DNA from: Candidatus Sulfotelmatobacter sp.
GTDB taxonomy: Bacteria; Acidobacteriota; Polarisedimenticolia; Polarisedimenticolales; DASRJG01
Direction: 5' to 3'
DNA length: 37,499 nucleotides
Assembly (NCBI GenBank): GCA_035510175.1
Contig: DATKHQ010000061.1
Coordinates: 1 to 37,499 of the forward strand
The translations under genes were made by a program, and so were the position numbers. The notes beneath the pieces were generated by a model that worked only from the letters and a program-made list of their open reading frames with translations, was not told the DNA's origin and did no database searches. The stretch's first letter is position 1, and each line of letters opens with the position of its first letter. Shown piece by piece: positions 8,384-33,759 of the stretch.

Positions 8384-10015
<1,632 letters not shown>

Positions 10016-18179: not shown

Positions 18180-19136
18180 GTGAGTCCGAGAGTGCGCCTT
18201 CTCGCGAACGTCGCCGTCGGCGTAGCGCTTTGCGCGCTCGCCCAGCCGGCAGGGGCGGTGGAGGTCAAATACCTCTACCGGCTGTCGAATTTTTCCGGGG
18301 TCATCCCTTACTCCGATGTGGAGATGTGCGCGGACCCCGCCCATGACGAGATCTATGTCGGCGAAGGCGACCTGATCCGCGTGTTCAACGCCTCCGGGAT
18401 GGAGATCTACGACTTCAGCCACGACGCGATGAGCTACGGCGCGATCCTGGACATCGGCGTCATGCCGAGTGGCGACATCCTGGTCCTTTCCTACAGGCAA
18501 CCGACGGAGGCCAGGGCAGGGGGCTCGCAGGTCACGCGCTACAACTATCGGGGCGAGCCCCTGGGATCATTCGAGGTCCATGGGCTCCCGAGCGAGCTTG
18601 CCGGATTCACACCGAACCGCCTCGCGATCCGCCAGGATTCGCTCGTGTTCGCGAGCACCGCGTCCCTGCTCGTCGTGACAACCGATTTCGAGGGGACGTA
18701 CCGGCGTCACGTCGACCTTCTGGCGACGCTTCCCAAGAACGACAAGGCGAGAGAAGGCGCCGAGCTGGGCGGTTTCTACGTCGATGATCAAGGCGCCATT
18801 CTCTATACGATTCCAACGGCTTTCCGGGCTTTCCGGCTCAAGCCGGACGGCACCGCGGATTCGTGGGGGAAGCCGGGATCGGGCCCCGGAAGCTTCAGCG
18901 TCGTCGGCGCGATCCTGGCCGCGCCCAATGGATACACCTTGGTCGCCGATCGCGCGCGCGGTGCGGTCCTCGTGTTCGACCCGAGCCTGCGTTTCGTCCG
19001 CGAGTTCGGGAATCGGGGGCCAATCGTCGAGCAGCTCAACCGGCCGGGACTGATGGTCTTCGGCCGGGACGGGAAGCTGTATGTGAGTCAGCTCGGCTAC
19101 CACGGCCTCTCGGTCTTCGCGCTCACCACCCCCTGA
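18180..19136 (+). CDS. Exported NHL-repeat beta-propeller protein
   Basis: Signal-like VRLLANVAVGVALCALAQPAGA. Repeated propeller-blade motifs (GDILVLS, FYVDDQGAILY, GYTLVADRARGAVLVFD, GRDGKLYVSQLGYHGLSVF). Start is GTG 18180 or GTG 18192. Confidence 0.7.
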   Translation: MSPRVRLLANVAVGVALCALAQPAGAVEVKYLYRLSNFSGVIPYSDVEMCADPAHDEIYVGEGDLIRVFNASGMEIYDFSHDAMSYGAILDIGVMPSGDILVLSYRQPTEARAGGSQVTRYNYRGEPLGSFEVHGLPSELAGFTPNRLAIRQDSLVFASTASLLVVTTDFEGTYRRHVDLLATLPKNDKAREGAELGGFYVDDQGAILYTIPTAFRAFRLKPDGTADSWGKPGSGPGSFSVVGAILAAPNGYTLVADRARGAVLVFDPSLRFVREFGNRGPIVEQLNRPGLMVFGRDGKLYVSQLGYHGLSVFALTTP

Positions 19137-19165
19137 CGCCGCCAGTCCCGGTCGGGTCGCTCGAT

Positions 19166-19187
19166 TCCGGAGAAAAACACTCCGGAG
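19166..19187. promoter_or_regulatory. Direct repeat TCCGGAG-N8-TCCGGAG (also foldable as CCGGAG/CTCCGG hairpin) upstream of the omcS-like gene
   Basis: Read directly: tccggag at 19166-19172 and 19181-19187. Each copy contains the palindrome TCCGGA. Located 30 nt after the NHL stop and about 60 nt before ATG 19249. Confidence 0.25.
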
Positions 19188-19248
19188 TGAGTGGGCCGCG
19201 GGCATGCGTTGTGCGATAACTCACGCCCACGTCTTTCAAGGAGGACTC

Positions 19249-20559
19249 ATGAAAGCGATCCGGATTCTTCTCATGGCGGGCGTCGCCGGCCTGGCGGTGA
19301 TCGGCCTCTCGCCGGTGTACGCGTTCCACTCCGGTGGCGTCGCCGAATGCGGCGGCTGCCACAGCATGCACGACGCGGCCTCGAACCCGCTCCTCCAGAA
19401 GGGCGATCCGAGCTCGACGTGCCTCAACTGCCACGAGCATGCGGGCGACACCGGCCCGAGCTCGTACCACATCTCGAGCGCCGTCGTCGACATGCCCGAC
19501 GGCGTGCCGCCGAAACAGCGCGGCCCGGCCGGCGACTTCGGCTGGCTGAAGAAGAACTACACCTACACGCTGCGCGGCACCCCGACGACCGACTTCGGGT
19601 ACACCCACGGCCACAACATCGTCGCGACGGATTTCGGGTACGTCGCCGATCCCGTCAACACCACGGCCCCCGGAGGGACGATGCCGTCCAACCAGCTCAG
19701 CTGCGTGAGTTGCCACGACCCGCACGACCGGACGCGTCGCCTCAACGACGGGACCCTCGTTTCGCCGAACCGGAACCAGGGGCAGACCTACGCACCGATC
19801 ATGGGCTCGGGCTCCTACGGTCTCGTTCCGCCGGCCGGTCTCGCGGCGGGCGTCTACCGGATCCTCGGCGACGTGAACTACGTTGCCTTCGACAACACGA
19901 CGTTCCCGGGCGTTCCCTCCGCGGTGACGCCGTCGACGTACAACCGGACGGAATTGGCGACGCAGACCCGCACCGCCTACGGCCACGCGACGACGGGCGG
20001 GTACGCGAGCTGGGGTCAGTGGTGCGCCACGTGCCACCCGAACATGCACAGCAACAACAACGCGCTGGCCCACCCGGTCGACCAGGCGCTCGGCACGACG
20101 ATCTCCAACAACTACAACGCCTACCTCAAGACGGGCGATCTGACCGGAACGCCGACCACGTCGTTCAACTCGTTGGTGCCCTTCACCGAATCGACGTCGG
20201 ACGTCGCCACGCTGGCCGCCCACGCCAAGACCGACGACTCGTACCTGAACGGGCCGGCCTCGAGCGATCGCGTGAACTGCCTCAGCTGCCACCGCGCTCA
20301 CGCGACGGCGTGGACCTACAGCCTCCGGTGGAACGGCGAGAACGAGTTCGTCACGATGGCCGACAGCACCGGCACGGCCGTGTACCCCGGCAAGGACGCC
20401 GTGGGCAACACGCCGGACGGCAAGGCGCTCAACCAGCAGACCCAGATCTTCAAGGGGTACACGGTGGCCGAGATGCAGGCCGGGTACTACGACCGGCCGG
20501 CGATCAAGTTCGCCGCCTATCAGCGCCAGCTCTGCAACAAGTGTCACATCCAGGATTGA
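19249..20559 (+). CDS. omcS: OmcS-family hexaheme c-type cytochrome (nanowire-forming cytochrome homologue)
   Basis: AAGGAGGA lies 5 nt before the ATG. Signal peptide ends VYA|FHSGGVAECGGCHSMH. Six CXXCH motifs (CGGCH, CLNCH, CVSCH, CATCH, CLSCH, CNKCH). Long runs match my recollection of G. sulfurreducens OmcS: CLNCH.HAGDTGPSSYHIS, GDFGW.KK, GHNIVA, TTAPGGT.P.NQL.C.SCHDPH, YRILG, PSTYNRTE..TQTR.AYG, VNCLSCHRAHA, KFA.YQR.LCNKCH..D. Confidence 0.9.
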   Translation: MKAIRILLMAGVAGLAVIGLSPVYAFHSGGVAECGGCHSMHDAASNPLLQKGDPSSTCLNCHEHAGDTGPSSYHISSAVVDMPDGVPPKQRGPAGDFGWLKKNYTYTLRGTPTTDFGYTHGHNIVATDFGYVADPVNTTAPGGTMPSNQLSCVSCHDPHDRTRRLNDGTLVSPNRNQGQTYAPIMGSGSYGLVPPAGLAAGVYRILGDVNYVAFDNTTFPGVPSAVTPSTYNRTELATQTRTAYGHATTGGYASWGQWCATCHPNMHSNNNALAHPVDQALGTTISNNYNAYLKTGDLTGTPTTSFNSLVPFTESTSDVATLAAHAKTDDSYLNGPASSDRVNCLSCHRAHATAWTYSLRWNGENEFVTMADSTGTAVYPGKDAVGNTPDGKALNQQTQIFKGYTVAEMQAGYYDRPAIKFAAYQRQLCNKCHIQD

Positions 20560-20598
20560 TCGTTCCTGTCTGTCGCGGATCCTCCCTGAAGGGCGGAA

Positions 20599-20628
20599 GG
20601 GGGCCGGTCGAACCGGCCCCCTTTTTTT
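20599..20628 (+). terminator. Rho-independent terminator after the omcS-like gene
   Basis: GGGGGCCGG (20599-20607), loop tcgaa, CCGGCCCCC (20613-20621), followed by TTTTTTT (20622-20628). It starts 40 nt after the stop codon. Confidence 0.85.
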
Positions 20629-20672
20629 GATTGCGTGCTCGGACTAGCCTTAGCGTTCCATCCGGGGGCGTC

Positions 20673-22079
20673 ATGTTGAGGGCCTGCATCGCGATCGGGA
20701 TAATCGGGCTCCTCGCCGTCCCTGGAGACCGCGCCGCGCGTCCCGCGGTTGGGGTACCGAGGGAAGGCGGCTACGTCGCCGTTTACGCCAAGCCGCTTTC
20801 ACCCGCGGCCGCCGGACTCACGCTCACGCTGGGCGGAGTCTCCGCCGTCCGGGAGGACGGCACCGCAGCGCCGCTGACGCTGACGATGCCGAGCTATCCC
20901 GATCCGGGCCCTCCCCGGCAACGGCTGCTGGCCTGGGGCTTCGTGCCTGCCGGAGCGTACGCGGGGCTCGCGATCAAGGTGCGCTCGGCCCGCGCGAGGA
21001 CCGACGGCGAGGGGCACGATCTTGCGGTCGGGACGGATGCTCCCGCAGCCAAGCTCCCGTTCCTCGCAGGGCCGCGCAGCGCCCTCGTCGCCACCGTCGA
21101 GCTCGACGTCGGAGCCTCGCGAAAGTCGGCCGACGAGCTCGCACCCGTGTTCGTGGCGACGATCCCGCCGACGCTCGCCTCGGGCCTGACGGGAGCGGTG
21201 ACGAGCCGCGGAACCGGCGTCGTCTCCTTGTTCGACAAGGTTTCGGGTCAGGTCGCCTCCGCGATCGCCGTCGGGCGGGCCCCGTCCGCGATGGCGATCG
21301 ACGACCTGAGAAACCGCCTTTATGTGGCCATCGGCGGGGACGACGCCGTCGCGACCCTCGACTTGCTCTCCCGTTCCGTGCTCGGCGTGGTACGGCTGCG
21401 CGGGGGCGACGAGCCGGTCTCGCTCGGGTTGACTCCGGACCGGCGCACCTTGCTGGTCGCCAACGCGGGCTCCTCGAGCGTCACGGTGTTCGACGCGTCG
21501 GGCCCGACGCTCGTCGAGCGGACGCGCGTCGAGGTCGGGAGCGGCCCGCGCTATCTCCTGGTCGACCGTGCCGGAACGCGGGCGTGGGTGTTCTGCGCCG
21601 ACGAGGACCGGGTGGTCGCACTCACCCTTCCGACGGGCGCTCTCGCCGGATCGGTGTCCTCCCCCGGCGGCCCCATCCGCGGGGATTTCAGCAAGGACGG
21701 GACCCGCCTGTACGTCCTTCACGCGTACTCGGCCTACCTGGACGTCGTGGACGCGTCGACGCTCGCGGTCACGCAGCGCGTGTTCGTCGGGCCGAAGTCG
21801 GTATCCATCAAGGTGGATTCCCAGACGGACAGGATCTACCTCGGGTTCAAGGGCTCGAAATCGATCTCCGTCTACGATCCGGCCGGACTGCTTCCCATCG
21901 ACGAAATCCGGACAGAAGGAGGCGCCGACTTCCTCACGATCGACGGCCAAGGGAACAATCTTTGCGTCATCGATTCCCTCAGGGGCGAGATTCGCCTCGT
22001 CCGGCTCGTCGGGAAGACGGTCGCGGCGCAGGTCGACCTCCCCGAGCCAAGTGAGGTCGCGCTCCTGGGCGAAAGGTGA
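20673..22079 (+). CDS. Exported protein: Ig-like N-terminal domain (DUF4382-like) plus YVTN/YncE-type beta-propeller
   Basis: Signal MLRACIAIGIIGLLAVPG. Repeated roughly 40-residue blades (GRAPSAMAIDDLRNRLYVA, PVSLGLTPDRRTLLVANAGSSSVTVFD, GPRYLLVDRAGTRAWV, FSKDGTRLYVLHAYSAYLDVVD, DSQTDRIYLGF). Confidence 0.8.
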   Translation: MLRACIAIGIIGLLAVPGDRAARPAVGVPREGGYVAVYAKPLSPAAAGLTLTLGGVSAVREDGTAAPLTLTMPSYPDPGPPRQRLLAWGFVPAGAYAGLAIKVRSARARTDGEGHDLAVGTDAPAAKLPFLAGPRSALVATVELDVGASRKSADELAPVFVATIPPTLASGLTGAVTSRGTGVVSLFDKVSGQVASAIAVGRAPSAMAIDDLRNRLYVAIGGDDAVATLDLLSRSVLGVVRLRGGDEPVSLGLTPDRRTLLVANAGSSSVTVFDASGPTLVERTRVEVGSGPRYLLVDRAGTRAWVFCADEDRVVALTLPTGALAGSVSSPGGPIRGDFSKDGTRLYVLHAYSAYLDVVDASTLAVTQRVFVGPKSVSIKVDSQTDRIYLGFKGSKSISVYDPAGLLPIDEIRTEGGADFLTIDGQGNNLCVIDSLRGEIRLVRLVGKTVAAQVDLPEPSEVALLGER

Positions 22080-24286
22080 CGGATTGCGTGGGGAGATCCG
22101 AGCAGAGGCGATTGCGGGGACGGCGGGGCCTTCCGCTCCTCCTCGTGGCGCTCGCGGCGGCGCTCGGCCCGGCCCGACCCGCGGCTGCGGACGACGAGCT
22201 CAACGGGTACCTCGAGCTGACCGGCGCCGCGTCGCGGCTGAACACCGAGGATGCGACCGGGGCGAGCACCGACGAGACCGCGCGATCGTTCCTGCAGCGC
22301 TACAGCCTCAACTTCGCGCACCGCTTCTTTCCGAACCTCGAGTTCCGCGTCGGTGGCCTTTACGAGCACGAGCGTCTGTCGACCGACCTCTCCGGCATCG
22401 AGAGCGTGGGCAACCGCCAGCGCGTCCTTCCGTACGCCCTGTTCACGCTCCGGACGCAGATCGTCCTCGCCGAGATCGGGTACGACCGGCGAACGGAGCG
22501 GTTCGACAACGATCTGTCCGTCTCGAAGCTTACGCAGGAGAACTGGCGGGCGAATTTCGGCTGGAACCCGCTCGATCTCCCGCGACTGCGCCTCGAGCTG
22601 TCCCGGAGGAACACGTTCGACCTGGGGCGAGAGGGGCTGGACACGACGGAGGATCGCGCGCAGCTGGGCATGCGCTACAGCGCGGAGACCTACGAGGTGA
22701 ACTACCGCGGATCGCTGGAGCGCGATACGGACCACATCCACGGCGGGGCCGTGGAGACGAACTTCCAGAGCGCCCACGCGGCCTGGGGGGACGCGTGGCT
22801 CGACCGGCGCCTCACGTTGAGCACGGACTACACGGTGAGCTACCGCGAGACGACGGCGACCGGCTCGAGCGCGGGGGAGATCATCCAGTCCGTGAACGCC
22901 GTCGCCGGCCTCTCGTCGATCGACGACACGCCGGATCACGATCCCCTCAACCCGAATGCCGCGCTGATCGACGGCAACCTGACCGTCGGCGCCGGGGTGG
23001 ACCTGGGCCTCCCCCCGCCGGGAGGGGACATCCGGCCCCGCAACATCGGTCTCGATCTCGGTTTCGCCAATCAGCTCAACACGATCCTGGTGTGGGTCGA
23101 CCAGACGCTCCCGCCGTCGATCGCGGGTTCGTTCTCCTGGAAGATCTACTCGAGCGACGACAACTTGAACTGGACGCTCACCCAGACCCTGGTCACGGCT
23201 CCGTTCGGGCCGTTCGACAACCGGTTCGAGATCCGCTTCCCCGCGCTGGTCACGCGATACGTCAAGCTCGTGGTCTCGCCGCTGTCGCCGATCGTTCCGG
23301 ATGCGACGAGCTGGCCCCAGATCCTCGTGACCGAGCTCGAGCCGCAGCTGCGCACGGCGGCGTCGGGCGTCGAGAACCACACCTCGGAGGTGTCGCAGCT
23401 GTTCAACGGCAACTTCAGGGCACGGCTGCTGAACGTGCCGGCGTTCTACTACGAGCTCGGCTACTTCCTCTCGAATCCCGGCACGGGGCCCACGCAGTGG
23501 ACGCTCTCGAACGGACTGTCCGTGATCCAGGCGCTCAGCCCGATCCTGACCGGACAGGCCCGTCTCTCGCGGGAGGACCGGCAGGAGCGCATCGGCAGGC
23601 AGACCGCATACCTGTTCAGCGGGGCGCTCACCGCGACCCCGATTTCGACCGTCCAGGAAAGCCTGGTGGTCTCGGCGGTGAACGAGCAGGGGGACTTCGG
23701 GCGGGATACCGCATCGGCCCTCTTCTCGAGCGCGGCGGAGCTCTATCGGGGGATCGGCGCCAATCTGGTGGTGGGCCGCTCGGTCATCCGGCCCCACGAG
23801 GGCGGGCAGTCGATTTCCGACACGGGCGAGATCGGCGTCACCCTGAACCCGAACTCGCAGCTGACGGTCAATCTCCTGCTCCAGGATCGGGTGACGGATA
23901 CGACGTTCCCGACGCCGGCTCAGCCCGAGCAGCGCGACGACACGCGCGCGGCGGAGATCGGCGCCGCCTACCGCCCGCTGCGCTCCCTCTACCTTTTCGC
24001 CTCGACACGCGCGGAGCGGAGCAATCAAACCGGGTCCCGGACGCTACGCAACTACGCGCTGAGCTGGGCTCCCTTCCCGGACGGGACGCTTCACTTCAGC
24101 GTGTTCTACGATTCGACCTACCACACGGAGCTGGCCGAGACGGAGCAGACGCTCGTTCCGTCCGTGCGGTGGGACGTCACGTCGCGGATCTACCTCCAGA
24201 CGTCGTATCAGGATCTTCGAACGGATTCGGTCCTCGGGTCGACGCGGACCAAGGTCTGGACGGCGACGGTTCACGCGGCGTTCTAA
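22076..24286 (+). CDS. Predicted outer-membrane beta-barrel protein carrying an internal discoidin (F5/8 type C)-like domain
   Basis: Arg-rich signal peptide; alternating-hydrophobicity strands (FLQRYSLNFAHRFF, LEFRVGGLYEHE, YALFTLRTQIVLAEIGY); C-terminal TKVWTATVHAAF ending in Phe (OMP beta-signal). Start is GTG 22076 (GTGA overlap) or GTG 22088, which has AAGGTGA 8 nt upstream. Confidence 0.7.
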   Translation: MTDCVGRSEQRRLRGRRGLPLLLVALAAALGPARPAAADDELNGYLELTGAASRLNTEDATGASTDETARSFLQRYSLNFAHRFFPNLEFRVGGLYEHERLSTDLSGIESVGNRQRVLPYALFTLRTQIVLAEIGYDRRTERFDNDLSVSKLTQENWRANFGWNPLDLPRLRLELSRRNTFDLGREGLDTTEDRAQLGMRYSAETYEVNYRGSLERDTDHIHGGAVETNFQSAHAAWGDAWLDRRLTLSTDYTVSYRETTATGSSAGEIIQSVNAVAGLSSIDDTPDHDPLNPNAALIDGNLTVGAGVDLGLPPPGGDIRPRNIGLDLGFANQLNTILVWVDQTLPPSIAGSFSWKIYSSDDNLNWTLTQTLVTAPFGPFDNRFEIRFPALVTRYVKLVVSPLSPIVPDATSWPQILVTELEPQLRTAASGVENHTSEVSQLFNGNFRARLLNVPAFYYELGYFLSNPGTGPTQWTLSNGLSVIQALSPILTGQARLSREDRQERIGRQTAYLFSGALTATPISTVQESLVVSAVNEQGDFGRDTASALFSSAAELYRGIGANLVVGRSVIRPHEGGQSISDTGEIGVTLNPNSQLTVNLLLQDRVTDTTFPTPAQPEQRDDTRAAEIGAAYRPLRSLYLFASTRAERSNQTGSRTLRNYALSWAPFPDGTLHFSVFYDSTYHTELAETEQTLVPSVRWDVTSRIYLQTSYQDLRTDSVLGSTRTKVWTATVHAAF
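22934..23346 (+). other. Discoidin/F5-8-type-C-like domain inserted within the barrel ORF
   Basis: AALIDGNLTV..NIGLDLGFANQLNTILVWVDQ..FSWKIYSSDDNLNWTL..RFEIRFPALVTRYVKLVV..ILVTELEP follows the DG-x-T / VDLG / W-Y-S-DG-W / ARYVRL / E-E pattern of discoidin domains. Confidence 0.5.
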
Positions 24287-24299
24287 AAGGACGGTCGGC

Positions 24300-24893
24300 A
24301 TGCGCACGATGAGATCGGTCTCCTACATGGCACTCGCGGTCTCGCTCCTCCCCGCTTCCGGGTGTGCGGGCCGGCACGCCGCCACGAACACCTTTCACGA
24401 GCCCACGATGGACTTCAGCCTCGTGCACACGGTGGCGGTCCTGCCGTTCTCCAACCTCACGCCGACCCAAACGGCGGCCGACCGGGTCCGGGGCGTGTTC
24501 GTCACGATGCTCCAAGCCCAGGGAGGGGAGATGTACGTGCTGCCCCTCGGCGAGGTCCAAAAGGGACTTTCCCGGACGGAGATCCAGCGCGCGGACCAAC
24601 CCTCCGCCGAAGACGTCGTCGTCCTGGGGAAAGCGCTCAGTGCCGACGCGGTGATCACCGGGAGCGTGATGGAGTACGGAGAAGCGCGCTCCGGCTCCGC
24701 TTCGGCGAACTACGTCTCGGTCTCGGCGCAGATGCTGGAGACCAAGACCGGCCGCCTCGTCTGGAGCGCGCAGTCGACGAAGGGGGGAGTGACCGCCGCG
24801 GACCGGATGTTCGGAGGAGGCGGCCAGCCCATGAACGTGATCACCGCCGATGCCGTGAACGAGCTGCTCGACAAGCTCTTCAAGGCGAAGTGA
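24300..24893 (+). CDS. Lipoprotein with a CsgG/LpoB/DUF799-like fold
   Basis: Lipobox LLPASG|C; VAVLPFSNLT....ADAVITGSVMEY pattern typical of the CsgG/LpoB/TolB-N-like family. AAGGA upstream of the ATG. Confidence 0.75.
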   Translation: MRTMRSVSYMALAVSLLPASGCAGRHAATNTFHEPTMDFSLVHTVAVLPFSNLTPTQTAADRVRGVFVTMLQAQGGEMYVLPLGEVQKGLSRTEIQRADQPSAEDVVVLGKALSADAVITGSVMEYGEARSGSASANYVSVSAQMLETKTGRLVWSAQSTKGGVTAADRMFGGGGQPMNVITADAVNELLDKLFKAK

Positions 24894-25960
24894 GCGCCGT
24901 GCTCCCGCTAGGAGCGCCTCTTCTGGCTCTGGCCGCCCTGGCCGGCCCCCTTCGCGTGGCGGTCCTCCCCGTGGAGAACCTCACCGGCCGCGTGCTCGAC
25001 GGTGCTCCGATCGAGCGGGCCTGGCGGGGGGCGCTCGCCGCGAGCGGCATGGAGGTACTGGACGATCCGACGCGTGGGGCCTTGATGGACCGTCATCGGG
25101 TGCGGTACGTGGGCGGCGTCTCGCCGGACCTCGCCACCGCCTTCCGCGAGGAGGCGCAGGTCCAGGCGGTGATGATCACCTCCGTGGAGCGCTGGATCGA
25201 GCACGCGCCTCCGGTCCTCTCGCTGCATGCCCGCCTCGTCTCGACCGAGGCCGAGCCCTCGATCCTCTGGGTCGGCGGCCTCGGAGCGACGGGCGAGGAC
25301 CACCCCGGGTTCCTCGGGCTCGGAGTCGTGGACGACCCGAAGGTGCTTCTCGCGCGGGTGGTCGCGGATCTCGCGGCGTCGGTCAAGGGGGCTGTCTCGG
25401 GCGGGGCCTCCCGCACGCCGTCCGGCGAGCGCCGGTTCCGGCCCAAGCTTGCGTTCGCCAGCGTGGTCGCCGGCGAAGAAGGAGGGTCGCTTCGGGTCGC
25501 CGTGCTTCCCTTCACGAACCGCACGGACCGCCGGCGCGGCGGGGATCTCGTCGCGGCGCACTTCGTCGCGGCGCTCGCCGGGCGCCCCGGTATCCGAGTC
25601 GTGGAGCCCGGCATCGTCCGCGAGGTACTTCTCAAGCTCCGGGTGATCCCCGAAGGAGGGATCCCCTACGCACAGGCCGAGCTGCTCCGCGAGACGCTCG
25701 GGGCCGATCTCGTGCTGATGGGGGAGGTCCTGGATTACAGCGATGCGGACGTCGACGGTCCCCCTCCCATCGTCGATTTCACCGTGCAAGCGCTCGACGC
25801 CGCCCATCGCCGCGTGGCGTGGTCCGCGTTCAGCCACTCCACCGGTACGGACGGCGTCTGGTTCTTCGAGCGGGGCCGGCTCCGGACCGCCCACGCGCTC
25901 GCTGCGGCGATGGCGCGCTCCGCGGTCGAGGCGCTGCTCACCGCGAAAGGAAAGCCGTGA
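24890..25960 (+). CDS. Exported protein with two tandem CsgG/LpoB-like domains
   Basis: Two copies of the motif (RVAVLPVENLTG ... and RVAVLPFTNRTD ... GADLVLMGEVLDY). The GTG start overlaps the upstream stop (GTGA at 24890-24893). Confidence 0.7.
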   Translation: MSAVLPLGAPLLALAALAGPLRVAVLPVENLTGRVLDGAPIERAWRGALAASGMEVLDDPTRGALMDRHRVRYVGGVSPDLATAFREEAQVQAVMITSVERWIEHAPPVLSLHARLVSTEAEPSILWVGGLGATGEDHPGFLGLGVVDDPKVLLARVVADLAASVKGAVSGGASRTPSGERRFRPKLAFASVVAGEEGGSLRVAVLPFTNRTDRRRGGDLVAAHFVAALAGRPGIRVVEPGIVREVLLKLRVIPEGGIPYAQAELLRETLGADLVLMGEVLDYSDADVDGPPPIVDFTVQALDAAHRRVAWSAFSHSTGTDGVWFFERGRLRTAHALAAAMARSAVEALLTAKGKP

Positions 25961-27660
25961 GAGTACGAATCCCCATCCTCGCCGCAGCACTCTCCGCCGG
26001 GCTCGCATCCTGGGCCCTCGCGGCACCGCCGGCGGCATCCTCGTCGCCTCCCGAGCTCCCACTGATCCAGGGGCGGCGGGCGATCGCCACGGTCAACGGC
26101 CAGCCCGTCACATGGGGCGCCTTCCGGGAGGCGCTTGCGTCCGTTCACGAGAACGCGCCGGAGGCCACCAAGCGCGCGAAGCAGGACCCGCAGGCGCTGC
26201 TCGATCGGCTGATCACGGGAAAGCTGATCGTCCAGGAGGCGCGCAACATCGGTCTCGACCATGAGCCGGCGTACACCGCGGCGCTCGAATCGTTTCGGCT
26301 CGACACGCTCCAGAAGATGGTGCTCGACCGTCCGGCCTCCGAGGTCAAGAAGCCGTCCGATGCGGACGTCCGCTCCCTGTACGTCACGCGGGTCGGGGTC
26401 GCGCGGATCGACTCGGTGCTCTTCAAGACCAAGGCCGAGGCGGACGCGTTCTCCGCCGCCGTCAAGGGAGGGCGCGCGTTCGCCGATGCGGCGCGCGCGG
26501 CGCAGGGCTCCGGCGCGACCTGGCAGCCGAACGAGACGATCAAGCTGGCCGAGGCGCAGACCGAGGTCGCGGGTGCGATCGCGGTCCTCCATCCAGGCGA
26601 GACAAGCAAAGCCCTCCAGGTACAGGACGGATGGACGGTGGTCACCCCGCACGAGGTGACGGTCCCCGACGATCCCGTCGCGCGGAAGGAATCCGAGGAT
26701 CAGGCCCTCGACTACGCGCGACTGCAAGCGGTGGGCGCCTACACGCGCGACCTCCGGAAGCGCTACGCGAAGGTGGACGAGGCGCTCCTGGCGAGCCTCG
26801 ACTTCGAGGCGAAGGAGCCCGGCTTCGCGCGGCTCAAGACGGACGAGCGCGTGGTCGCTAGGGTCACCGGCCAGCCGCCGATCACGGTCGCCGAGATCGC
26901 CAAGGCCGTGGAGGCGAATTTCTTCCACGGGCTCGAAGGCGCAATCGCGAAACACCAGGTCAACCCGCGCAAGCCCGTCGCCTTCGACGAGATCCTGGTC
27001 CGGCGTCTGACCGTCGCGGAGGCGACGCGTCTCGGCATCGAGTCCTCGGCCGACTACCGGGAGCGAAAGGAGCAGTTCGAGGATGGGGCGCTGTTCGACG
27101 CGTTCGTGAAGCGCGTCATCGTTCCCGACGTCCGGGTCGCCCCCGCCGAGGCGCGCGCGTACTACGACGCCCACGCGGACAGCTACGCGACCCCCGCGAT
27201 GCTCCGCCTCGATTCCATCGCGTTCGGGAAGCGATCCGACGCGGAGGTCGCCCTCAAGAAGGTCCGCGACGGCGCCGATTTCGGCTGGCTCAAGCAGAAT
27301 GCGGCTGGCCGGACCGACGCGAGCGACGTCATGAATCTTAACGGCGGAGTCTACTCGGTCAACGGCGTCGATCCCGGAATGAACAAGGCGCTCGCCAATC
27401 CCAAGGACGGGGATGCCCGTCTCTTCTCGGCGGACGACGGGACGAGCTACGTGATCCTGGTGCGGGAGGTGTTCCCGCCGAAGATCAAGCCTTTCGAGGA
27501 GGCGCAGGAGAACGCCACGCGTCAGGTCCTGAACGAGAAGCTCAAGAAGTCCCTGGACGACTGGACGAAGAAGCTGAGATCGGCGTACGAAGTGAAGACG
27601 TTCGTGACCCCCGCGCAGCTCGAAGCGCTCGTCAAAAGGGAATTCGGAGTCAAAGCCTGA
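25957..27660 (+). CDS. SurA/PrsA-like periplasmic chaperone with two parvulin (PpiC)-like domains
   Basis: Signal VRVRIPILAAALSAGLASWALA; SurA-type N-terminal helices (LLDRLITGKLIVQEARNIGL); two parvulin-like segments (ARIDSVLFKTKAEADAFSAAVKGGRAFADAA and LRLDSIAFGKRSDAEVALKKVRDGADFGWL). GTGA overlap with the upstream stop. Confidence 0.75.
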   Translation: MRVRIPILAAALSAGLASWALAAPPAASSSPPELPLIQGRRAIATVNGQPVTWGAFREALASVHENAPEATKRAKQDPQALLDRLITGKLIVQEARNIGLDHEPAYTAALESFRLDTLQKMVLDRPASEVKKPSDADVRSLYVTRVGVARIDSVLFKTKAEADAFSAAVKGGRAFADAARAAQGSGATWQPNETIKLAEAQTEVAGAIAVLHPGETSKALQVQDGWTVVTPHEVTVPDDPVARKESEDQALDYARLQAVGAYTRDLRKRYAKVDEALLASLDFEAKEPGFARLKTDERVVARVTGQPPITVAEIAKAVEANFFHGLEGAIAKHQVNPRKPVAFDEILVRRLTVAEATRLGIESSADYRERKEQFEDGALFDAFVKRVIVPDVRVAPAEARAYYDAHADSYATPAMLRLDSIAFGKRSDAEVALKKVRDGADFGWLKQNAAGRTDASDVMNLNGGVYSVNGVDPGMNKALANPKDGDARLFSADDGTSYVILVREVFPPKIKPFEEAQENATRQVLNEKLKKSLDDWTKKLRSAYEVKTFVTPAQLEALVKREFGVKA

Positions 27661-27678
27661 CATGATGCCGGTGCCGAA

Positions 27679-29643
27679 ATGAGCCTGCGTGGGTGGGGAT
27701 TCCGGTCTTGGGGGGCGAGCGCTGCTGCGGCGCTCGCGGTCGCCGTCCTGCAGGCCCCGATCCTCGGGGCGGAGACCCGGAAGTTCCAGTCCAAGTCGTG
27801 CATCGACTGCCACGGCGCTTTCGTCCAGAAGCTGGCTCCGCTCAAGGTCTTGCACCCCGGCGTGAAGGAGGGGAATTGCGAGAGCTGCCACCTCCGGCAC
27901 GGCATCGTGCCCAAGCTTCTCTTGAAACAGGAAGGCAACGCGCTCTGTCTGAGCTGCCACGCGAAAGAGACGATCGGGCTCGACAAGGCCAACGTGCACT
28001 CGGCGCTCAAGACGGGGAAGTGCGTCCAGTGTCACGACCCGCACGGCTCGAGCGCCCCCCACCTTCTCGCCGGTGAGGGGGCGGGCGCCTGCACGTCCTG
28101 CCACGACCGCAAAGCGTTCGAGCGGCCGGTCGTGCACGCCGTGCTCAAGACGGAGGGCTGCCGGGCTTGCCACCTCGCGCACAGCTCGTCGGAGGCGAAC
28201 CTGCTCGTCAAGGCGGAGGTCCCGCTCTGCCTGTCGTGCCACGATCCGGGCAAGCCGGCGTTCAAGACCGCGCACGGCGGGTACCCCGTCGAGAAAGCCT
28301 CGTGCGTGGGCTGCCACGATCCCCATTCCGCCGAGCAGCCCAAGCTGCTCAAGGCGAGCGCTCACGCCCCTACCGCGGGCGGGAGCTGCGACGCATGCCA
28401 CTCCGGGGCCACGTCGGCGAAGCCCTTCGGTCTCAAGGCCGAGGGCGCGGCGCTGTGCACCTCGTGCCACGACGCCGCGCAGCTCAAGGCGGGCGGGACC
28501 GTCGTCCACGCCCCGTTCGACTCCGGGGACTGCACGTCGTGCCACGATCCGCACGCCTCGGCCCAACCCAAGCTGCTCGCCCGGAAGGGCAATGAGCTCT
28601 GTACGAGCTGTCACACCGATCAGGGCGTCACGCCCGCGTTCCCGCATCCGGCGGTCGACAACGGCTGCGTGACCTGCCACGCGCCGCACGCGGCCAAGAA
28701 CGCGAAGCTCCTCGAGAAGCCGGGCTCGGAGCTGTGCGCCGACTGCCACGGTGAGATCGTCGCCGCCAAGCCGAAGGTCCCGCATGCCCCGTTCGACGCC
28801 GGCGAGTGCGTCGCCTGCCACGATCCCCATGGGTCCTCGACGAAGGGGATCCTCAAGAACCGCCAGGACCAGGTCTGCTTCACGTGCCATTCGGATCAGG
28901 AGCAGGAGTTCAAGCAGGCGACCGTCCACGCTCCGGTGCTGGCGGGAAGCTGCTCCGGCTGCCACCAGCCTCACGGCGGCACGGAGCCGAAGCTGCTCAA
29001 GGCCTCTGGGGCGGCGCTGTGCGCGAGCTGCCACGAAGACCTGATCAAGGAGGAACCCGGCGGGTCGAACCATCCGCCCTTCGCGTCCGGCGACTGCCTC
29101 ACGTGTCACGTTCCGCATGCGTCGTCCGCGCCGCGCCTGATCGGCCAACGGACCGCGGACCTCTGCTACACCTGCCACTCGGACGTGCAGGACGCGTTGA
29201 AGGCGGGGAAGGTCCGGCATGCCTCGGTCGAGGCGGGCGAGTGCACGAAGTGTCACAGCCCGCACAAGTCGAAGCTTCCGAAGTTGCTGCTGGCTCCGGC
29301 ACCCGATCTGTGCGTCACCTGCCACGCCGCGATCAAGACGAAGCTCGCCTCGGAACAGGTGCACCCTCCGGCTGCCCGCGACTGCCTCCGGTGTCACGCT
29401 CCCCATCAGTCCGCGGAGCCCTCGCTGCTCGTCTCGTCTCAGGGATCGCTGTGCGCCGGGTGTCACGACGTCCGGTCCGAGCCGTTTTCGAAGGCGCACC
29501 TCGGCATTGACCCATCCGTGATGAACTGCGTCAGCTGCCACGAGCCTCACGCGTCGAAGGACCCGAAGCTCTTCAAGCCCCAGGTGCACGCGCCGTTCGA
29601 GTCCGGCGCCTGCGAGGAGTGTCATGTCGTTCCGTCGAAGTGA
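27679..29643 (+). CDS. Multiheme c-type cytochrome, 26 CXXCH motifs (13 paired-CXXCH modules)
   Basis: I counted 26 CXXCH in 654 aa. Signal peptide present. Module of about 50 aa: C-x2-CH-DPH-x5-7-KLL-x5-7-LC-x2-CH-x10-13-VH-x-P-x4-6. Confidence 0.9.
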   Translation: MSLRGWGFRSWGASAAAALAVAVLQAPILGAETRKFQSKSCIDCHGAFVQKLAPLKVLHPGVKEGNCESCHLRHGIVPKLLLKQEGNALCLSCHAKETIGLDKANVHSALKTGKCVQCHDPHGSSAPHLLAGEGAGACTSCHDRKAFERPVVHAVLKTEGCRACHLAHSSSEANLLVKAEVPLCLSCHDPGKPAFKTAHGGYPVEKASCVGCHDPHSAEQPKLLKASAHAPTAGGSCDACHSGATSAKPFGLKAEGAALCTSCHDAAQLKAGGTVVHAPFDSGDCTSCHDPHASAQPKLLARKGNELCTSCHTDQGVTPAFPHPAVDNGCVTCHAPHAAKNAKLLEKPGSELCADCHGEIVAAKPKVPHAPFDAGECVACHDPHGSSTKGILKNRQDQVCFTCHSDQEQEFKQATVHAPVLAGSCSGCHQPHGGTEPKLLKASGAALCASCHEDLIKEEPGGSNHPPFASGDCLTCHVPHASSAPRLIGQRTADLCYTCHSDVQDALKAGKVRHASVEAGECTKCHSPHKSKLPKLLLAPAPDLCVTCHAAIKTKLASEQVHPPAARDCLRCHAPHQSAEPSLLVSSQGSLCAGCHDVRSEPFSKAHLGIDPSVMNCVSCHEPHASKDPKLFKPQVHAPFESGACEECHVVPSK

Positions 29644-30943
29644 CGGCCTCCTCGCCCGGCTCGCGGGAAGCGCCATGGCCTCGGTTTTGCTCGCGGGGCC
29701 GGTCGGTGCCGCGCCTCCGTCCGCGCGCCCGGCCGCCGAGGCGGACGACGCGAAGTTCAAGCTCAAGCCCGGAGCCCACGGCAAGGTCTGTCTCGGCTGC
29801 CATTCCGATTTCGAGGACAAGCTGAAGCTGCCCGCGATCCACACGCCCGTCAAGGCGGGCGCGTGCGTGGATTGCCACAGCCCGCACGCCTCCGACCACG
29901 GGAAGATGCTCGCGAAGCCCCCCGAGGCGATCTGCGTGTCGTGCCACGCCACGATCGTCCCGGCCGAGGCGAAGAGTGTGCACGCGGCGCTGCGGAAGGG
30001 GGGATGCGTCGCTTGCCACGACCCGCACGCCTCGCCGAACAAGAACCAGCTCCTCAAGCCGGTCGGCGAGCTGTGCGTCGGTTGCCATCAGGACATCGGG
30101 GCTCAGATCGCGAAGGTCAAGTTCCACCACCCGCCGGTGAGCACCGGCTGCGTCACCTGCCACGACCCGCATGCGTCGGCGAAGTCGGAGACGCTTCTGG
30201 TGCGCGACCAGGGGTCGCTCTGCGCGTCCTGTCACAAGCCGGACCAGCCGGCGATGACCAAGGCCCACATGGGCTATCCCGTGTCGAAGGGGCGGTGCAC
30301 GTCGTGCCACGACCCCCACGGCTCCGACGCTCAGGCGATGCTCTGGCCGAGCGTGCACAAGCCGGTCGCGACCCGCTCGTGCGGCCAGTGCCACAACGAC
30401 CCGGGGTCCGCGAACGCCCTGAAGACCAAGCGCCAGGGGATCGACGTCTGCCGCGGCTGCCATGGCGAGGTCGTGGGCGACGCGATGAACGCAAAGCGCC
30501 TCCACTGGCCGGTGGCGGACAAGATCGCGTGCCTGAACTGCCACGGTCCGCACGCGACCAAGGCGCCGAAGCTCGTGCGCGGGCCGCTGACATCCGTGTG
30601 CGGAAACTGCCACGCCGACACGATCCGGCGTCAGGAGCGCTCGGAAACCAAGCACCCGCCGGTCGAGTCGGGAGACTGCACGAGCTGTCACGCGCCCCAC
30701 GGATCGGACAACCCGTTCCTGCTCGCCGCCCCCGACGAGCTTCAGCTGTGCGGGACCTGTCACGACTGGCAGAACCACACCGGGCACCCGATCGGTCCGA
30801 AGGCGGTGGACCCCCGCAACAAGAACCTCACCGTGAGCTGCGAGAGCTGCCATCGCGCCCACGGCACGGAGTTCAAGCACTTCGCGCATCTGGACACGAA
30901 GGGGGACCTCTGTGTCCAGTGCCACGAAAGGTTCCGGAGGTAA
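29624..30943 (+). CDS. Multiheme c-type cytochrome, 16 CXXCH motifs
   Basis: I counted 16 CXXCH in 439 aa with the same paired module. ATG 29624 is preceded by GAGGAG (29614-19) and overlaps the upstream gene by 20 nt. Alternative ATG at 29675. Confidence 0.85.
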   Translation: MSFRRSDGLLARLAGSAMASVLLAGPVGAAPPSARPAAEADDAKFKLKPGAHGKVCLGCHSDFEDKLKLPAIHTPVKAGACVDCHSPHASDHGKMLAKPPEAICVSCHATIVPAEAKSVHAALRKGGCVACHDPHASPNKNQLLKPVGELCVGCHQDIGAQIAKVKFHHPPVSTGCVTCHDPHASAKSETLLVRDQGSLCASCHKPDQPAMTKAHMGYPVSKGRCTSCHDPHGSDAQAMLWPSVHKPVATRSCGQCHNDPGSANALKTKRQGIDVCRGCHGEVVGDAMNAKRLHWPVADKIACLNCHGPHATKAPKLVRGPLTSVCGNCHADTIRRQERSETKHPPVESGDCTSCHAPHGSDNPFLLAAPDELQLCGTCHDWQNHTGHPIGPKAVDPRNKNLTVSCESCHRAHGTEFKHFAHLDTKGDLCVQCHERFRR

Positions 30944-30946
30944 CCC

Positions 30947-31840
30947 ATGGCCCGAACCGCCGGAGCCGGACTGACGATGCTCGCCGTGCTGCTCGGCGCG
31001 CCCGCCGCGAGCGCGGAGGGAGTCAAGCTGCGGCCGGGACCGGGAATCTACGCCGACGCGAAGAACGCCCCCCTCAGCCTGCCGGAGGGCGTCGCGTGCG
31101 CCGCGACGTCGCTCGTCGTCGCCGACACCGGACACGGCCGCTTCGTCATATACGAGCTGGCCGATCGCCTCGCCACGCCGAAGACCGACTTTCAGGTGCC
31201 CGAGGTTCCCTACCCGATCCGCGTCCGCCTCGACGCGCACGGCGAGATCCTCGCCCTGGATGGAAAATCGCGGCGCATCGCAAGGCTCACCGCCGCCGGC
31301 GCGTTCCAGGGATTCGTCGGCGTGGCCGACGCGCCCGAACCCGTGATCCGGAGCTTCGCCGTCGGCGCCGACGGCCGCCTCTACGTCCTCGACATCGCCG
31401 GGGAGCGGGTGCTCGTGACGGACCCGGCCGGGAAGGTCGAGCGCCGGGTCGCCCTTCCCGCGGACTGCCGGTTCCCCTCGGACGTGACGGTCGATGCCCA
31501 GGGGCGCCTCTACGTGCTCGACAGCGTCGGTGCGCGGATCTTCGCCGCGGCCGCCGGCAAGGCGGAATTCGTCGCGATCGGAGCGAGCCTGAAGGATGAT
31601 CTCGCGTTCGCGACAAGCCTCGGCCTCGACTCCGCGGGGCACCTCGTCGTGATCGACCAGACGGGCGGCGGGATCGTGTTCCTGTCGACGGACGGCTCCT
31701 TCCGCGGGCGGCAGTCGGGGATGGGCTGGACCGACGGGCTGTTGCGCTGGCCGTCCTCGGTGTGCAGCGACGGCCGTGGCGGGCTGTACGTCGCGGATCG
31801 CGAGAACGACCGCATCGCGGTTTTCACCGAGGTGCCCTGA
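30947..31840 (+). CDS. Exported NHL-repeat beta-propeller protein
   Basis: GGAGG lies 8 nt upstream. Signal MARTAGAGLTMLAVLLGAPAASA. Blades include LVVADTGHGRFVIY, DGRLYVLDIAGERVLVTD, QGRLYVLDSVGARIF, GHLVVIDQTGGGIVF, GGLYVADRENDRIAVF. Confidence 0.8.
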   Translation: MARTAGAGLTMLAVLLGAPAASAEGVKLRPGPGIYADAKNAPLSLPEGVACAATSLVVADTGHGRFVIYELADRLATPKTDFQVPEVPYPIRVRLDAHGEILALDGKSRRIARLTAAGAFQGFVGVADAPEPVIRSFAVGADGRLYVLDIAGERVLVTDPAGKVERRVALPADCRFPSDVTVDAQGRLYVLDSVGARIFAAAAGKAEFVAIGASLKDDLAFATSLGLDSAGHLVVIDQTGGGIVFLSTDGSFRGRQSGMGWTDGLLRWPSSVCSDGRGGLYVADRENDRIAVFTEVP

Positions 31841-31876: not shown

Positions 31877-33658
31877 TCATCGCGGAGCCTCACCCGCCTC
31901 CGCGGTCGCGAGCAGACGCTGCAGCTCGACGTCGCCCGGCGAGAAACGGGCCGCGGCGGTCAGCTCCACGACCGCCTCCTGTTTTCGGCCGCGGCGCAGA
32001 AGGGCGATGCCGAGCGGCCGGTGCGCCTTCTCGTACGACGGATCGCGGCGCAGCACCTCTTGCAGGCGCTCGATCGCTTCCTCGTTTGCGCCCTCGAGCA
32101 GGAGGGCGTAGCCGAGGTCGAAGATCGCGCCGACGTATCCGGGATCGAGCCGCACCGCTTCCCGGAATTCGGCGATCGCGCCGTCCATGTCGCCGCCGAG
32201 CGCCAGACCGCTCCCGAGGTTGTTGTGCGCCTTGACGTTGTTCGGGTCGTAGCGGATCGCCTCGCGGAATTGCGCGATCGCCTCGTCGCGGCGGCCGAGC
32301 TTGATGAACGCTTCGCCCAGGTTGTTGTGCGCGCCCGCGTGGGAGGGCTCGATCGCGAGCGCGCGCTCGTACTCCTCCACCGCCCGGCCGGGCCGTCCGG
32401 TCTTGGCATAGGCGTTCGCGAGGTTGAACCGTGCGGTCATGCTGTCCGGGCGAATCATCGCCCACTGCGTGTAGAACGCCACCTCGTCGAAGTAGGGCGC
32501 GCGAGAGCGGGAGAGCGCGCCGAGAGCGAGGGCGAGGAGGGCCGCGGCCACGAGGACCGTTCGCTCTCGCGCCGCCCGTCGCGCGATCTCCGAGGCGAGC
32601 GCGGCGCCCGCCAGCACGAGCCCGAGGACCGCCGGGGCGACGTACCGCTCGTCGAACAGCGTCTCCTGCCGCACGAGATTCGCGGTGGGAAGCTGCACGA
32701 CGACGAACCAGCCGATTCCGAAGACGAGCACGGATCGGACGCCGCGTCCGGACCGCCATGCCGTCAGTGCCGCCAGCGCGAGCACGAGCCCGACGACCAC
32801 GAGCTTCGAGGGCGACAGCCACGCCGCGACCGGCGGCTCGTAGAGCAGCGCGCGGAACGGCGTCAGCGTGACCTCGAGCGCGTAGACGTACGTCAGGGGG
32901 ACGTACCCCGGCGTTCCCGTCGACATCTGTCCGCCGGGAAGCACCACGGCGCGGACCGCGGCGTAAGCGGCGAGGACGACGAGGAACGGTGCGGCGCGCG
33001 TGGCGAGGGCCGTCGCGCTCCGTCGCGGCGCTCCGGCAGGCCGGCTCAGCCCGGCCGCTTCGGCCAGCGCGATGACCCCCGGCGTCACGATCGCCGCTTC
33101 CTTGCACAGCAGCCCGGCCGCGAAGACCGCAGCGCTCGCGATCGCGGCCCCCACGGTCCCTCGCAGATAGATCCAGACGGCGGCGACCATGCTCGACGTC
33201 GCCAGCAGCGTGTCGCGACCGGAGACGGGATGGACACACGACGAGACGACCGGGTGGAGGATGAAGATCGCCGCCCCGGCCGCCGCCATCCCAGGGGCGA
33301 GCCCGAAGCAGGGTCTTCGGAACAGCCCGTAGGTCAGCACCGCCAGCGCTCCGGCGAGCGCCACGTTGGCCGCGTGGAACGGCCGGGGGTCGTCCCCCCA
33401 CACGCGGCGCTGGACGAGGAAGCTCGCGGAGGTCACCGGCCGGTAGTAGGGGAGGCCTTCGTAATACGGTCGAGCGAAAAGCTTCGCGATGTCCGCGGCC
33501 GAGCGGGGGACTGCCGGCTTGAGGATCAGGAGGAAGTCGTCGTAGAGAAATCCGTTCCGCAGCGCCGGGAGGTACGCTGCGAGGACGAGCACGAGCAGCA
33601 GGGTCGCCGCCGCGACGGTCTTCCGGTTCGGGGTCGCGGCCTCTTCCAACGTGAGCAT
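31877..33658 (-). CDS. Integral-membrane TPR protein (TMTC/PMT_2-like GT-C N-terminal domain plus C-terminal TPR repeats)
   Basis: MLTLEEAATPNRKTVAAATLLLVLVLAAYLPALRNGFLYDDFLLI (DD motif of TMTC-like proteins), about 9-11 helices, then 5-6 TPR units (AHNNLGEAFIKLGRRDEAIAQFREAIRYDPNNVKAHNNLG..). The track extension to 34426 was rejected. Confidence 0.8.
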   Translation of the reverse strand: MLTLEEAATPNRKTVAAATLLLVLVLAAYLPALRNGFLYDDFLLILKPAVPRSAADIAKLFARPYYEGLPYYRPVTSASFLVQRRVWGDDPRPFHAANVALAGALAVLTYGLFRRPCFGLAPGMAAAGAAIFILHPVVSSCVHPVSGRDTLLATSSMVAAVWIYLRGTVGAAIASAAVFAAGLLCKEAAIVTPGVIALAEAAGLSRPAGAPRRSATALATRAAPFLVVLAAYAAVRAVVLPGGQMSTGTPGYVPLTYVYALEVTLTPFRALLYEPPVAAWLSPSKLVVVGLVLALAALTAWRSGRGVRSVLVFGIGWFVVVQLPTANLVRQETLFDERYVAPAVLGLVLAGAALASEIARRAARERTVLVAAALLALALGALSRSRAPYFDEVAFYTQWAMIRPDSMTARFNLANAYAKTGRPGRAVEEYERALAIEPSHAGAHNNLGEAFIKLGRRDEAIAQFREAIRYDPNNVKAHNNLGSGLALGGDMDGAIAEFREAVRLDPGYVGAIFDLGYALLLEGANEEAIERLQEVLRRDPSYEKAHRPLGIALLRRGRKQEAVVELTAAARFSPGDVELQRLLATAEAGEAPR

Positions 33659-33759
33659 CCGAGCGAGGTCCGAGCGCCGGTGCGCGGGCCGCGATGATAT
33701 CGCAGCGCTCCCTCCGCAGCTTCGTCGAAACCGGTTGACGCCCCCGGAAAGAGACGGTA

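Follow-up and report, generated by a model that had tools for sequence, protein, structure and literature searches.

The stretch of DNA analysed here (the window) comprises 37,499 nucleotides (nt) of contig DATKHQ010000061.1 in GenBank assembly GCA_035510175.1, a metagenome-assembled genome (MAG) labelled Candidatus Sulfotelmatobacter sp. It contains ten co-oriented genes (18192-31840) in the order A, S, D, E, F, G, H, I, J, and K. The second gene, S, encodes a c-type cytochrome with six haem-binding CXXCH motifs that is related to OmcS (GSU2504; 6EF8, 6NEF), the filament-forming cytochrome of Geobacter sulfurreducens, and its neighbours resemble the genes of the Geobacter omcS-companion (osc) cluster (GSU2505-GSU2493; Shen et al. 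2025, Cell Chem Biol 32:239). That the product is a hexahaem cytochrome of the OmcS family lying in an osc cluster is practically certain. Sequence comparisons further make it probable that this protein is secreted and forms the subunit of an OmcS-type extracellular cytochrome filament, and that the window holds a complete osc cluster with a single subunit gene. The coordinates of the features are collected in Table 1.

The open reading frame (ORF) of gene S was real and as first described, with an ATG start at position 19249. A chance ORF or a pseudogene was ruled out by homology, by a codon-position GC content (0.57/0.52/0.93) that is typical for genes of the window (~69% GC), and by the occurrence of the identical protein on many contigs. 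The product is identical to GenBank HUC42859.1, annotated as a hypothetical protein, and at least 79 contigs, drawn from many metagenome assemblies, encode exactly this protein. In its predicted signal peptide (MKAIRILLMAGVAGLAVIGLSPVYA), K and R in the N-region are followed by a hydrophobic core and a VYA/F junction, after which the mature protein is predicted to begin with FHSGGVAECGGCHSMH. An AxA/FH.GG junction was also found in the homologues of eight comparison loci (L010-L017). Precursor F26, which is mature F1, aligned to the first residue of mature OmcS as present in 6EF8, in agreement with the cleavage site and mature N-terminus proposed in an initial annotation of this DNA. The six CXXCH motifs start at precursor residues 34, 58, 152, 259, 344, and 429, and each aligned with its counterpart in OmcS, so that the annotated order of the haem sites was also upheld. 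A tblastn search of the protein against the whole window found no second copy; the other matches were weak (E ≥ 0.006), were at the level of CXXCH motifs, and fell inside the two large multihaem genes at 27679-30943. The annotation had likewise reported one copy and no OmcT-like paralogue in the window, and tblastn found none.

Table 1. Positions of the cytochrome gene, its internal features, and the surrounding cluster genes in the window
Feature	Position	Strand	Remarks
Gene A, 314-aa secreted protein	18192..19136	+	40% identity to L007:8893-9747; GSU2505 position upstream of omcS
Shine-Dalgarno-like AAGGAGG	19238..19244	+	4 nt ahead of ATG 19249; direct reading
Gene S, OmcS-family hexahaem c-type cytochrome	19249..20559	+	436-aa precursor, 411-aa mature protein
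Predicted Sec signal peptide, 25 codons	19249..19323	+	MKAIRILLMAGVAGLAVIGLSPVYA; cleavage after VYA exposes Phe1
Haem 1 motif CGGCH	19348..19362	+	Mature C9-H13
His16 codon CAC (precursor H41)	19369..19371	+	Position of the OmcS inter-subunit haem 5' ligand
Haem 2 motif CLNCH	19420..19434	+	Aligned to OmcS motif
Haem 3 motif CVSCH	19702..19716	+	Followed by conserved distal His, mature H134, 19723-19725
Haem 4 motif CATCH	20023..20037	+	Conserved distal His, mature H250, at 20071-20073
Haem 5 motif CLSCH	20278..20292	+	Conserved His, mature H326, at 20299-20301
Haem 6 motif CNKCH	20533..20547	+	Aligned to OmcS motif
Intrinsic-terminator-like hairpin	20595..20629	+	14-bp stem with 9 G-C pairs, loop of 3, T7; between cytochrome gene and oscD-like gene
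Gene D, OscD-like YncE-type beta-propeller, 468 aa	20673..22079	+	Pfam YNCE E = 7e-13; 37% identity to the Geobacter gene after oscC
Gene E, OscE-like, 713 aa	22145..24286	+	No Pfam match; 35% full-length identity to Geobacter L007:18770-20866
Gene F, OscF-like lipoprotein, GNA1162-like/LpoB-like	24300..24893	+	Signal ends LPASG/C; 45% identity
Gene G, OscG-like, 356 aa	24890..25960	+	33-42% identity to same-position gene in L009-L017
Gene H, OscH-like periplasmic peptidyl-prolyl isomerase/chaperone, 567 aa	25957..27660	+	Rotamase_2 5.9e-19, SurA_N
Gene I, OscI-like multihaem cytochrome, 26 CXXCH	27679..29643	+	49-57% identity to syntenic genes in L011-L017
Gene J, OscJ-like multihaem cytochrome, 16 CXXCH	29624..30943	+	Syntenic homologues
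Gene K, NHL-repeat protein, last cluster gene	30947..31840	+	GSU2493 position; Pfam NHL 8.5e-18; 40-44% identity in L011, L013-L017

A phmmer search of all Protein Data Bank (PDB) chains returned a single distinct sequence, OmcS (6EF8/6NEF; E = 1.1e-106, a value well outside chance), with residues 26-436 of the query aligned to residues 1-407 of the chain and with an identical register at mature F1, C9, C12, H13, and H16. BLASTP against Geobacter OmcS gave 46% identity (E = 1e-130). An AlphaFold2 (AF2) model built from a 109-sequence alignment had a mean predicted local distance difference test score of 88.9 and a predicted template modelling (TM) score of 0.86. Foldseek comparison of the model with the PDB again gave a sole match, 6ef8_A (E = 1.6e-43, TM 0.82/0.88, root-mean-square deviation 2.9 Å). 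Membership of the OmcS family is secure because the sequence and fold searches of the PDB both gave OmcS alone, and the full-length homology to OmcS claimed in the initial annotation was thus borne out. In NCBIfam, which contains no OmcS-specific model, the protein gave generic doubled-CXXCH matches only. The window protein and OmcS are similar in mature length (411 and 407 residues, respectively), in cleavage before FHSGG, and in gene context, with A upstream and D and E-K downstream. They differ in the loop between haem 1 and haem 2, which is 14 residues shorter in the window protein (haem 2 Cys at mature position 33 vs. 47), and in the replacement of the non-ligand His139 of OmcS by Ser.

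The axial histidines were then considered. The number 16 for the inter-subunit histidine of OmcS reportedly goes back to Wang et al. 2019. An exhaustive HMMER search of 1.84 billion cluster representatives gave 534 family clusters at E ≤ 1e-3, of which 362 passed E ≤ 1e-10 and 178 passed E ≤ 1e-30. Eighty-eight full-length six-haem representatives of 50%-identity clusters were aligned with OmcS and the window protein (90 sequences in total), and conservation across the family in this alignment was used to deduce the 12 ligand positions. Exactly 12 His columns were at least 96% conserved across these divergent sequences; in OmcS mature numbering they comprise six proximal His (13, 51, 144, 243, 332, and 404) and six others (2, 16, 110, 147, 257, and 335). 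Because six bis-His haems need twelve ligands, the 12 columns were taken as the axial ligands. The remaining five of the 17 His in OmcS (53, 63, 139, 247, and 309) are variable, with conservation of 3-51%. All 12 conserved His are present in the window protein (mature 2, 13, 16, 37, 97, 131, 134, 238, 250, 323, 326, and 408). Of the 17 His in OmcS, it retains 16, the exception being His139, a position that is occupied by His in only 7% of the family. As far as an alignment can tell, the full complement of axial His that the initial annotation had anticipated is therefore in place, with His16 in register. The annotation had numbered His16 correctly but had put it two residues after the first CXXCH; it stands three positions after His13, with two residues between. 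In OmcS, each chain supplies eleven of its own axial ligands, and the twelfth, on haem 5, is provided by the neighbouring subunit (Filman et al., PMC6584659; PMC7096707); haem 5 is the haem that receives His16 from the next subunit (PMC7096707, PMC6584659, PMC9473688).

His16 was invariant in the closer alignments (244 and 109 sequences) and present in 86 of the 90 divergent sequences (96%), the lowest conservation among the twelve. It was lost in 4 of the 88 cluster representatives (P0422, P0448, P0454, and P0465), where I, L, G, or A takes its place and the other 11 conserved His are retained. These four are candidates that may represent natural non-polymerising variants and, if they do not polymerise, the residue could help to recognise filament formers from sequence. 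The FH.GG...CXXCHxxH arm, His16 included, is likewise present in OmcT and OscC (GSU2501-like), the Geobacter paralogues of OmcS. The initial annotation had read His16 as the mark of a polymerising cytochrome. That conclusion is plausible, but the residue by itself does not single out a filament former: 96% of the family has it, OmcT and OscC among them, and neither of these two is known to polymerise or has an assigned function (PMC12977616). Because His16 is family-wide, its presence adds little to the case for polymerisation.

Better support for polymerisation than His16 alone is offered by the osc context, because a complete cluster surrounds the sole hexahaem gene, together with the full set of ligands. 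According to the account of Shen et al. 2025 in PMC13194489, OscH is proposed to act in folding, OscE/F/G in secretion, and OscD in filament morphology. GSU2500-2493 is described as an eight-gene block for nanowire maturation and secretion (PMC12977616). The neighbours of the window cytochrome would have the roles suggested by this Geobacter genetics and, judged by gene content, the cytochrome is the only plausible substrate of the complete osc assembly cluster.

Several observations weigh against a filament-forming subunit. The only solved filament in the PDB copy searched was that of G. sulfurreducens OmcS. The window protein was equidistant from OmcS (46% identity), OmcT (46%), and OscC (44%), and a neighbour-joining tree, which lacks support values and is indicative only, placed it outside the OmcS clade, in a separate large clade of proteins from Acidobacteriota, Rokubacteria, Nitrospirota, Syntrophorhabdus, and Anaeromyxobacteraceae MAGs. 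It was not closer to OmcS than to the paralogues, as OmcS sensu stricto would be, and on these distances it is not a specific OmcS (GSU2504) orthologue. Sequence methods cannot separate true nanowire subunits from OmcT, OmcJ, and GSU2501-like paralogues outside a genus (PMC12977616). His16, which OmcT and OscC share, is necessary but not discriminating. Finally, the low confidence with which the N-terminal arm was modelled, although it would suit an arm ordered only in the polymer, may be due just to a haem-free model. The arm (precursor residues 22-47, with haem 1 and His16) was the only low-confidence part of the AF2 model, and authentic Geobacter OmcS, used as a control with the same alignment, gave low confidence at residues 22-43 and 49-58.

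The alternative is an OmcS-family hexahaem protein that does not polymerise but is monomeric or loosely associated, in the periplasm or at the surface, with the osc-like genes exporting or maturing it without a filament. Filament formation is documented for OmcS alone (PMC12977616), OmcT, OmcJ, and OscC may be non-polymerising, and His16 is kept by paralogues with no known polymerisation. PMC12977616 also raises the idea that the eight-gene block perhaps served first for secretion and was later co-opted for nanowires. In a monomer, however, haem 5 would be left without a sixth ligand, since the family has no thirteenth conserved His. The arm, moreover, ranks with the best-conserved segments of the family, yet it is not confidently placed in the monomer model, as in OmcS, and this fits an arm that would become ordered only within the polymer. 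The sole hexahaem gene of the window also lies in a ten-gene cluster whose D-H members affect the folding, secretion, and morphology of Geobacter OmcS filaments, according to PMC13194489. A non-polymerising protein is regarded as unlikely, and a filament-forming subunit remains the favoured interpretation.

For such a subunit, we infer export, polymerisation, and the direction of electron flow. The precursor would be exported by Sec, and cleavage after VYA would expose Phe1. Six c-type haems would be attached at the six CXXCH motifs, with eleven axial His provided by the same chain, and folding would be aided by the OscH-like prolyl isomerase. Passage of the subunit through the outer membrane could be mediated by the OscE/F/G-like envelope proteins. 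Subunits would then stack head to tail, with His16 of the N-terminal arm serving as the sixth ligand of the neighbour's haem 5 to give a continuous haem chain, and the OscI/J-like cytochromes, with 26 and 16 haems, are candidate periplasmic electron feeders. A filament of this kind would resemble OmcE and OmcZ of G. sulfurreducens in being an extracellular polymer of a multihaem c-type cytochrome, and in OmcE a His of the neighbouring subunit also ligates a haem (PMC9473688). OmcE and OmcZ have no sequence or fold similarity to the window protein (Foldseek and HMMER gave OmcS alone) and carry four and eight haems, respectively, and in OmcZ every haem ligand comes from within the subunit.

A GEMM-I (cyclic di-GMP-I, c-di-GMP-I) riboswitch lies just upstream of Geobacter omcS (L007:9896-9976, + strand, 56.8 bits). 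Upstream of the window gene, none was found at the gathering score, and regulation there would accordingly differ from that in Geobacter. A c-di-GMP-I-GGC match at 19025-19105 (+ strand) scored 21.3 bits against a gathering score of 59 and fell inside the 3' end of the gene A coding sequence; it was set aside as probably due to chance. The missing Geobacter-type riboswitch is compatible with a filament that carries electrons in the opposite direction or serves a purpose other than mineral respiration, such as taking up electrons from Fe(II), humics, or partner cells, or storing charge. The sequence does not determine which way electrons flow, haem chains with bis-His ligation conduct reversibly, and the host lineage is an uncultured group of Acidobacteriota of unknown physiology. 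There is no positive evidence for such a role, and genes for Fe(II) oxidation (Cyc2, MtoAB) were not seen in the window; we consider it very improbable.

Other expression signals concern the amount of protein made. Hairpins followed by a T-run, comparable to the one downstream of the window gene, were found after the homologous gene at L010:4144-4187, L012:8264-8311, L013:8197-8226, L015:7922-7947, and L016:3201-3246. This recurrence in other taxa points to a conserved attenuation of transcription between the gene for the subunit and those for the machinery, and an attenuating hairpin at this position would yield more subunit than assembly machinery. The strong ribosome-binding site and the hairpin after the gene fit a subunit that would be abundantly made.

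The arrangement was compared with that in other genomes. Comparison loci were gathered by a genome scan with an OscE alignment, for which two peptide patterns were used (13 loci; G. sulfurreducens PCA and the window's own genome were not among them). A Geobacter reference locus, L007, was obtained by a separate search of encoding contigs, and its OmcS is 94% identical to the 6EF8 chain. The order A-S-D-E-F-G-H-I-J-K with a single hexahaem gene was found at L010-L017, in Syntrophorhabdus, a Geobacter sp., Nitrospirae, Thermodesulfobacteriota, a deltaproteobacterial MAG, and two Anaeromyxobacteraceae, and the core S-D-E-F-G-H was found in Polarisedimenticolia, Vicinamibacterales, and Rokubacteria MAGs. 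Homologues of gene A occupy the same position in L010-L017, L023, and L024, and OscH-like homologues are syntenic in L009-L017 and L022-L024. The D-K genes of the window are colinear with the osc cluster, with 33-57% identity to syntenic genes of the Geobacter sp. and other taxa. At L007 the order is A-OmcS-OmcT-(1017-aa spermine-synthase-like)-OscC-D-E-F, and A, D, E, and F there share 35-45% identity with their counterparts in the window. Three hexahaem genes are thus present in G. sulfurreducens-type genomes, whereas the window has one and holds a minimal form of the cluster with a single subunit gene. OmcT (GSU2503), the spermine-synthase-like gene (GSU2502, or OscB, position), and OscC are absent from the window. 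These three are not part of the conserved core, because most non-Geobacter loci also lack them. OmcT and OscC belong to the same family as the window protein and likewise have six haems and the N-terminal arm with His16, and the window gene, like that of OscC, is immediately upstream of an OscD-like propeller gene.

Variations on this arrangement were observed at three comparison loci. The Geobacter sp. contig L011 carries a second OmcS-like gene (L011:14135-15436) after the NHL gene. In the Vicinamibacterales MAG a spermine-synthase-like gene (L023:15612-18605) lies between F and G, and in the Rokubacteria MAG one is found on the opposite strand after H (L024:18104-19096, - strand), at a locus that seems to be without I and J. 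A histidine kinase and sigma-54 regulator pair is located upstream in L007, L023, and L024, whereas there is none upstream in the window.

Several products of the neighbouring genes can be described further. Weak NHL-type signals indicate that the gene A product is possibly a beta-propeller. The OscD-like protein of the window has no CXXCH, whereas its Geobacter counterpart (L007:17193-18671) has an N-terminal CSGCH that overlaps a lipobox-like sequence. The C-terminus of the OscE-like protein (...AF) is typical of outer-membrane barrels, and the protein may be one. The OscF-like lipoprotein is a paralogue of the OscG-like protein's C-terminal half (31% identity in reciprocal tblastn matches), and the cross-match is also seen in several loci. 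The OscI-like and OscJ-like cytochromes are internally repetitive and mutually homologous (30-36% over shifted registers), and their genes overlap by 20 nt.

The cluster is bordered by a divergent VIT/VWA gene upstream and a convergent TPR gene downstream. An ORF at 32021-33697 (+ strand) was considered as a further cluster gene and rejected, because codon-position GC identified it as an antisense artefact of the real TPR-repeat gene (31877-33700, - strand). Beyond that gene, a secreted protein of more than 1250 aa is encoded at 33739-37499 (+ strand) and runs off the end of the window; it contains trypsin-like peptidase, purple-acid-phosphatase-N, and proprotein-convertase P domains. The VIT/VWA gene and this trypsin/P-domain protease gene have no homologue in the other osc loci and are therefore unlinked to the cluster. 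Elsewhere in the window, the closest named relatives of an ABC-F gene (8384-10015, + strand) belong, at 81% identity, to the acidobacteriotal class Candidatus Polarisedimenticolia. The NCBI label Candidatus Sulfotelmatobacter sp. sits poorly with these relatives and with the ~69% GC, and it may be imprecise. The host is an uncultured soil bacterium of the Acidobacteriota, the exact placement of which is uncertain.

The system has already been published, together with its gene cluster and broad phylogenetic distribution (Shen et al. 2025, cited through PMC13194489 and PMC12977616; Portela et al. 2024, PMC10954620), and OmcS homologues are in routine use as metagenomic markers (e.g., bioRxiv 10.64898/2026.08.10.744021). 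Because these aspects were already described, the present finding confirms existing understanding without changing it, and it is chiefly useful as a minimal, single-subunit example from a phylum that is dominant in soils. If the protein polymerises, tractable OmcS-type nanowires would extend to the Acidobacteriota. With one subunit gene and nine companions, this minimal cluster would also be simpler to reconstitute in a heterologous host than the three-paralogue operon of Geobacter. A more speculative proposal, which we advance tentatively and rate as possible rather than probable, is that the nanowire system is ancestrally, and most often, of the one-subunit form A-S-D-E-F-G-H-I-J-K, that the three-paralogue Geobacter operon is a derived expansion, and that the system is active in an abundant uncultured lineage of soil Acidobacteriota nearest Polarisedimenticolia. 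Were this true, OmcS-type nanowires would be a routine respiratory organelle of ordinary soils and not a speciality of Geobacter.

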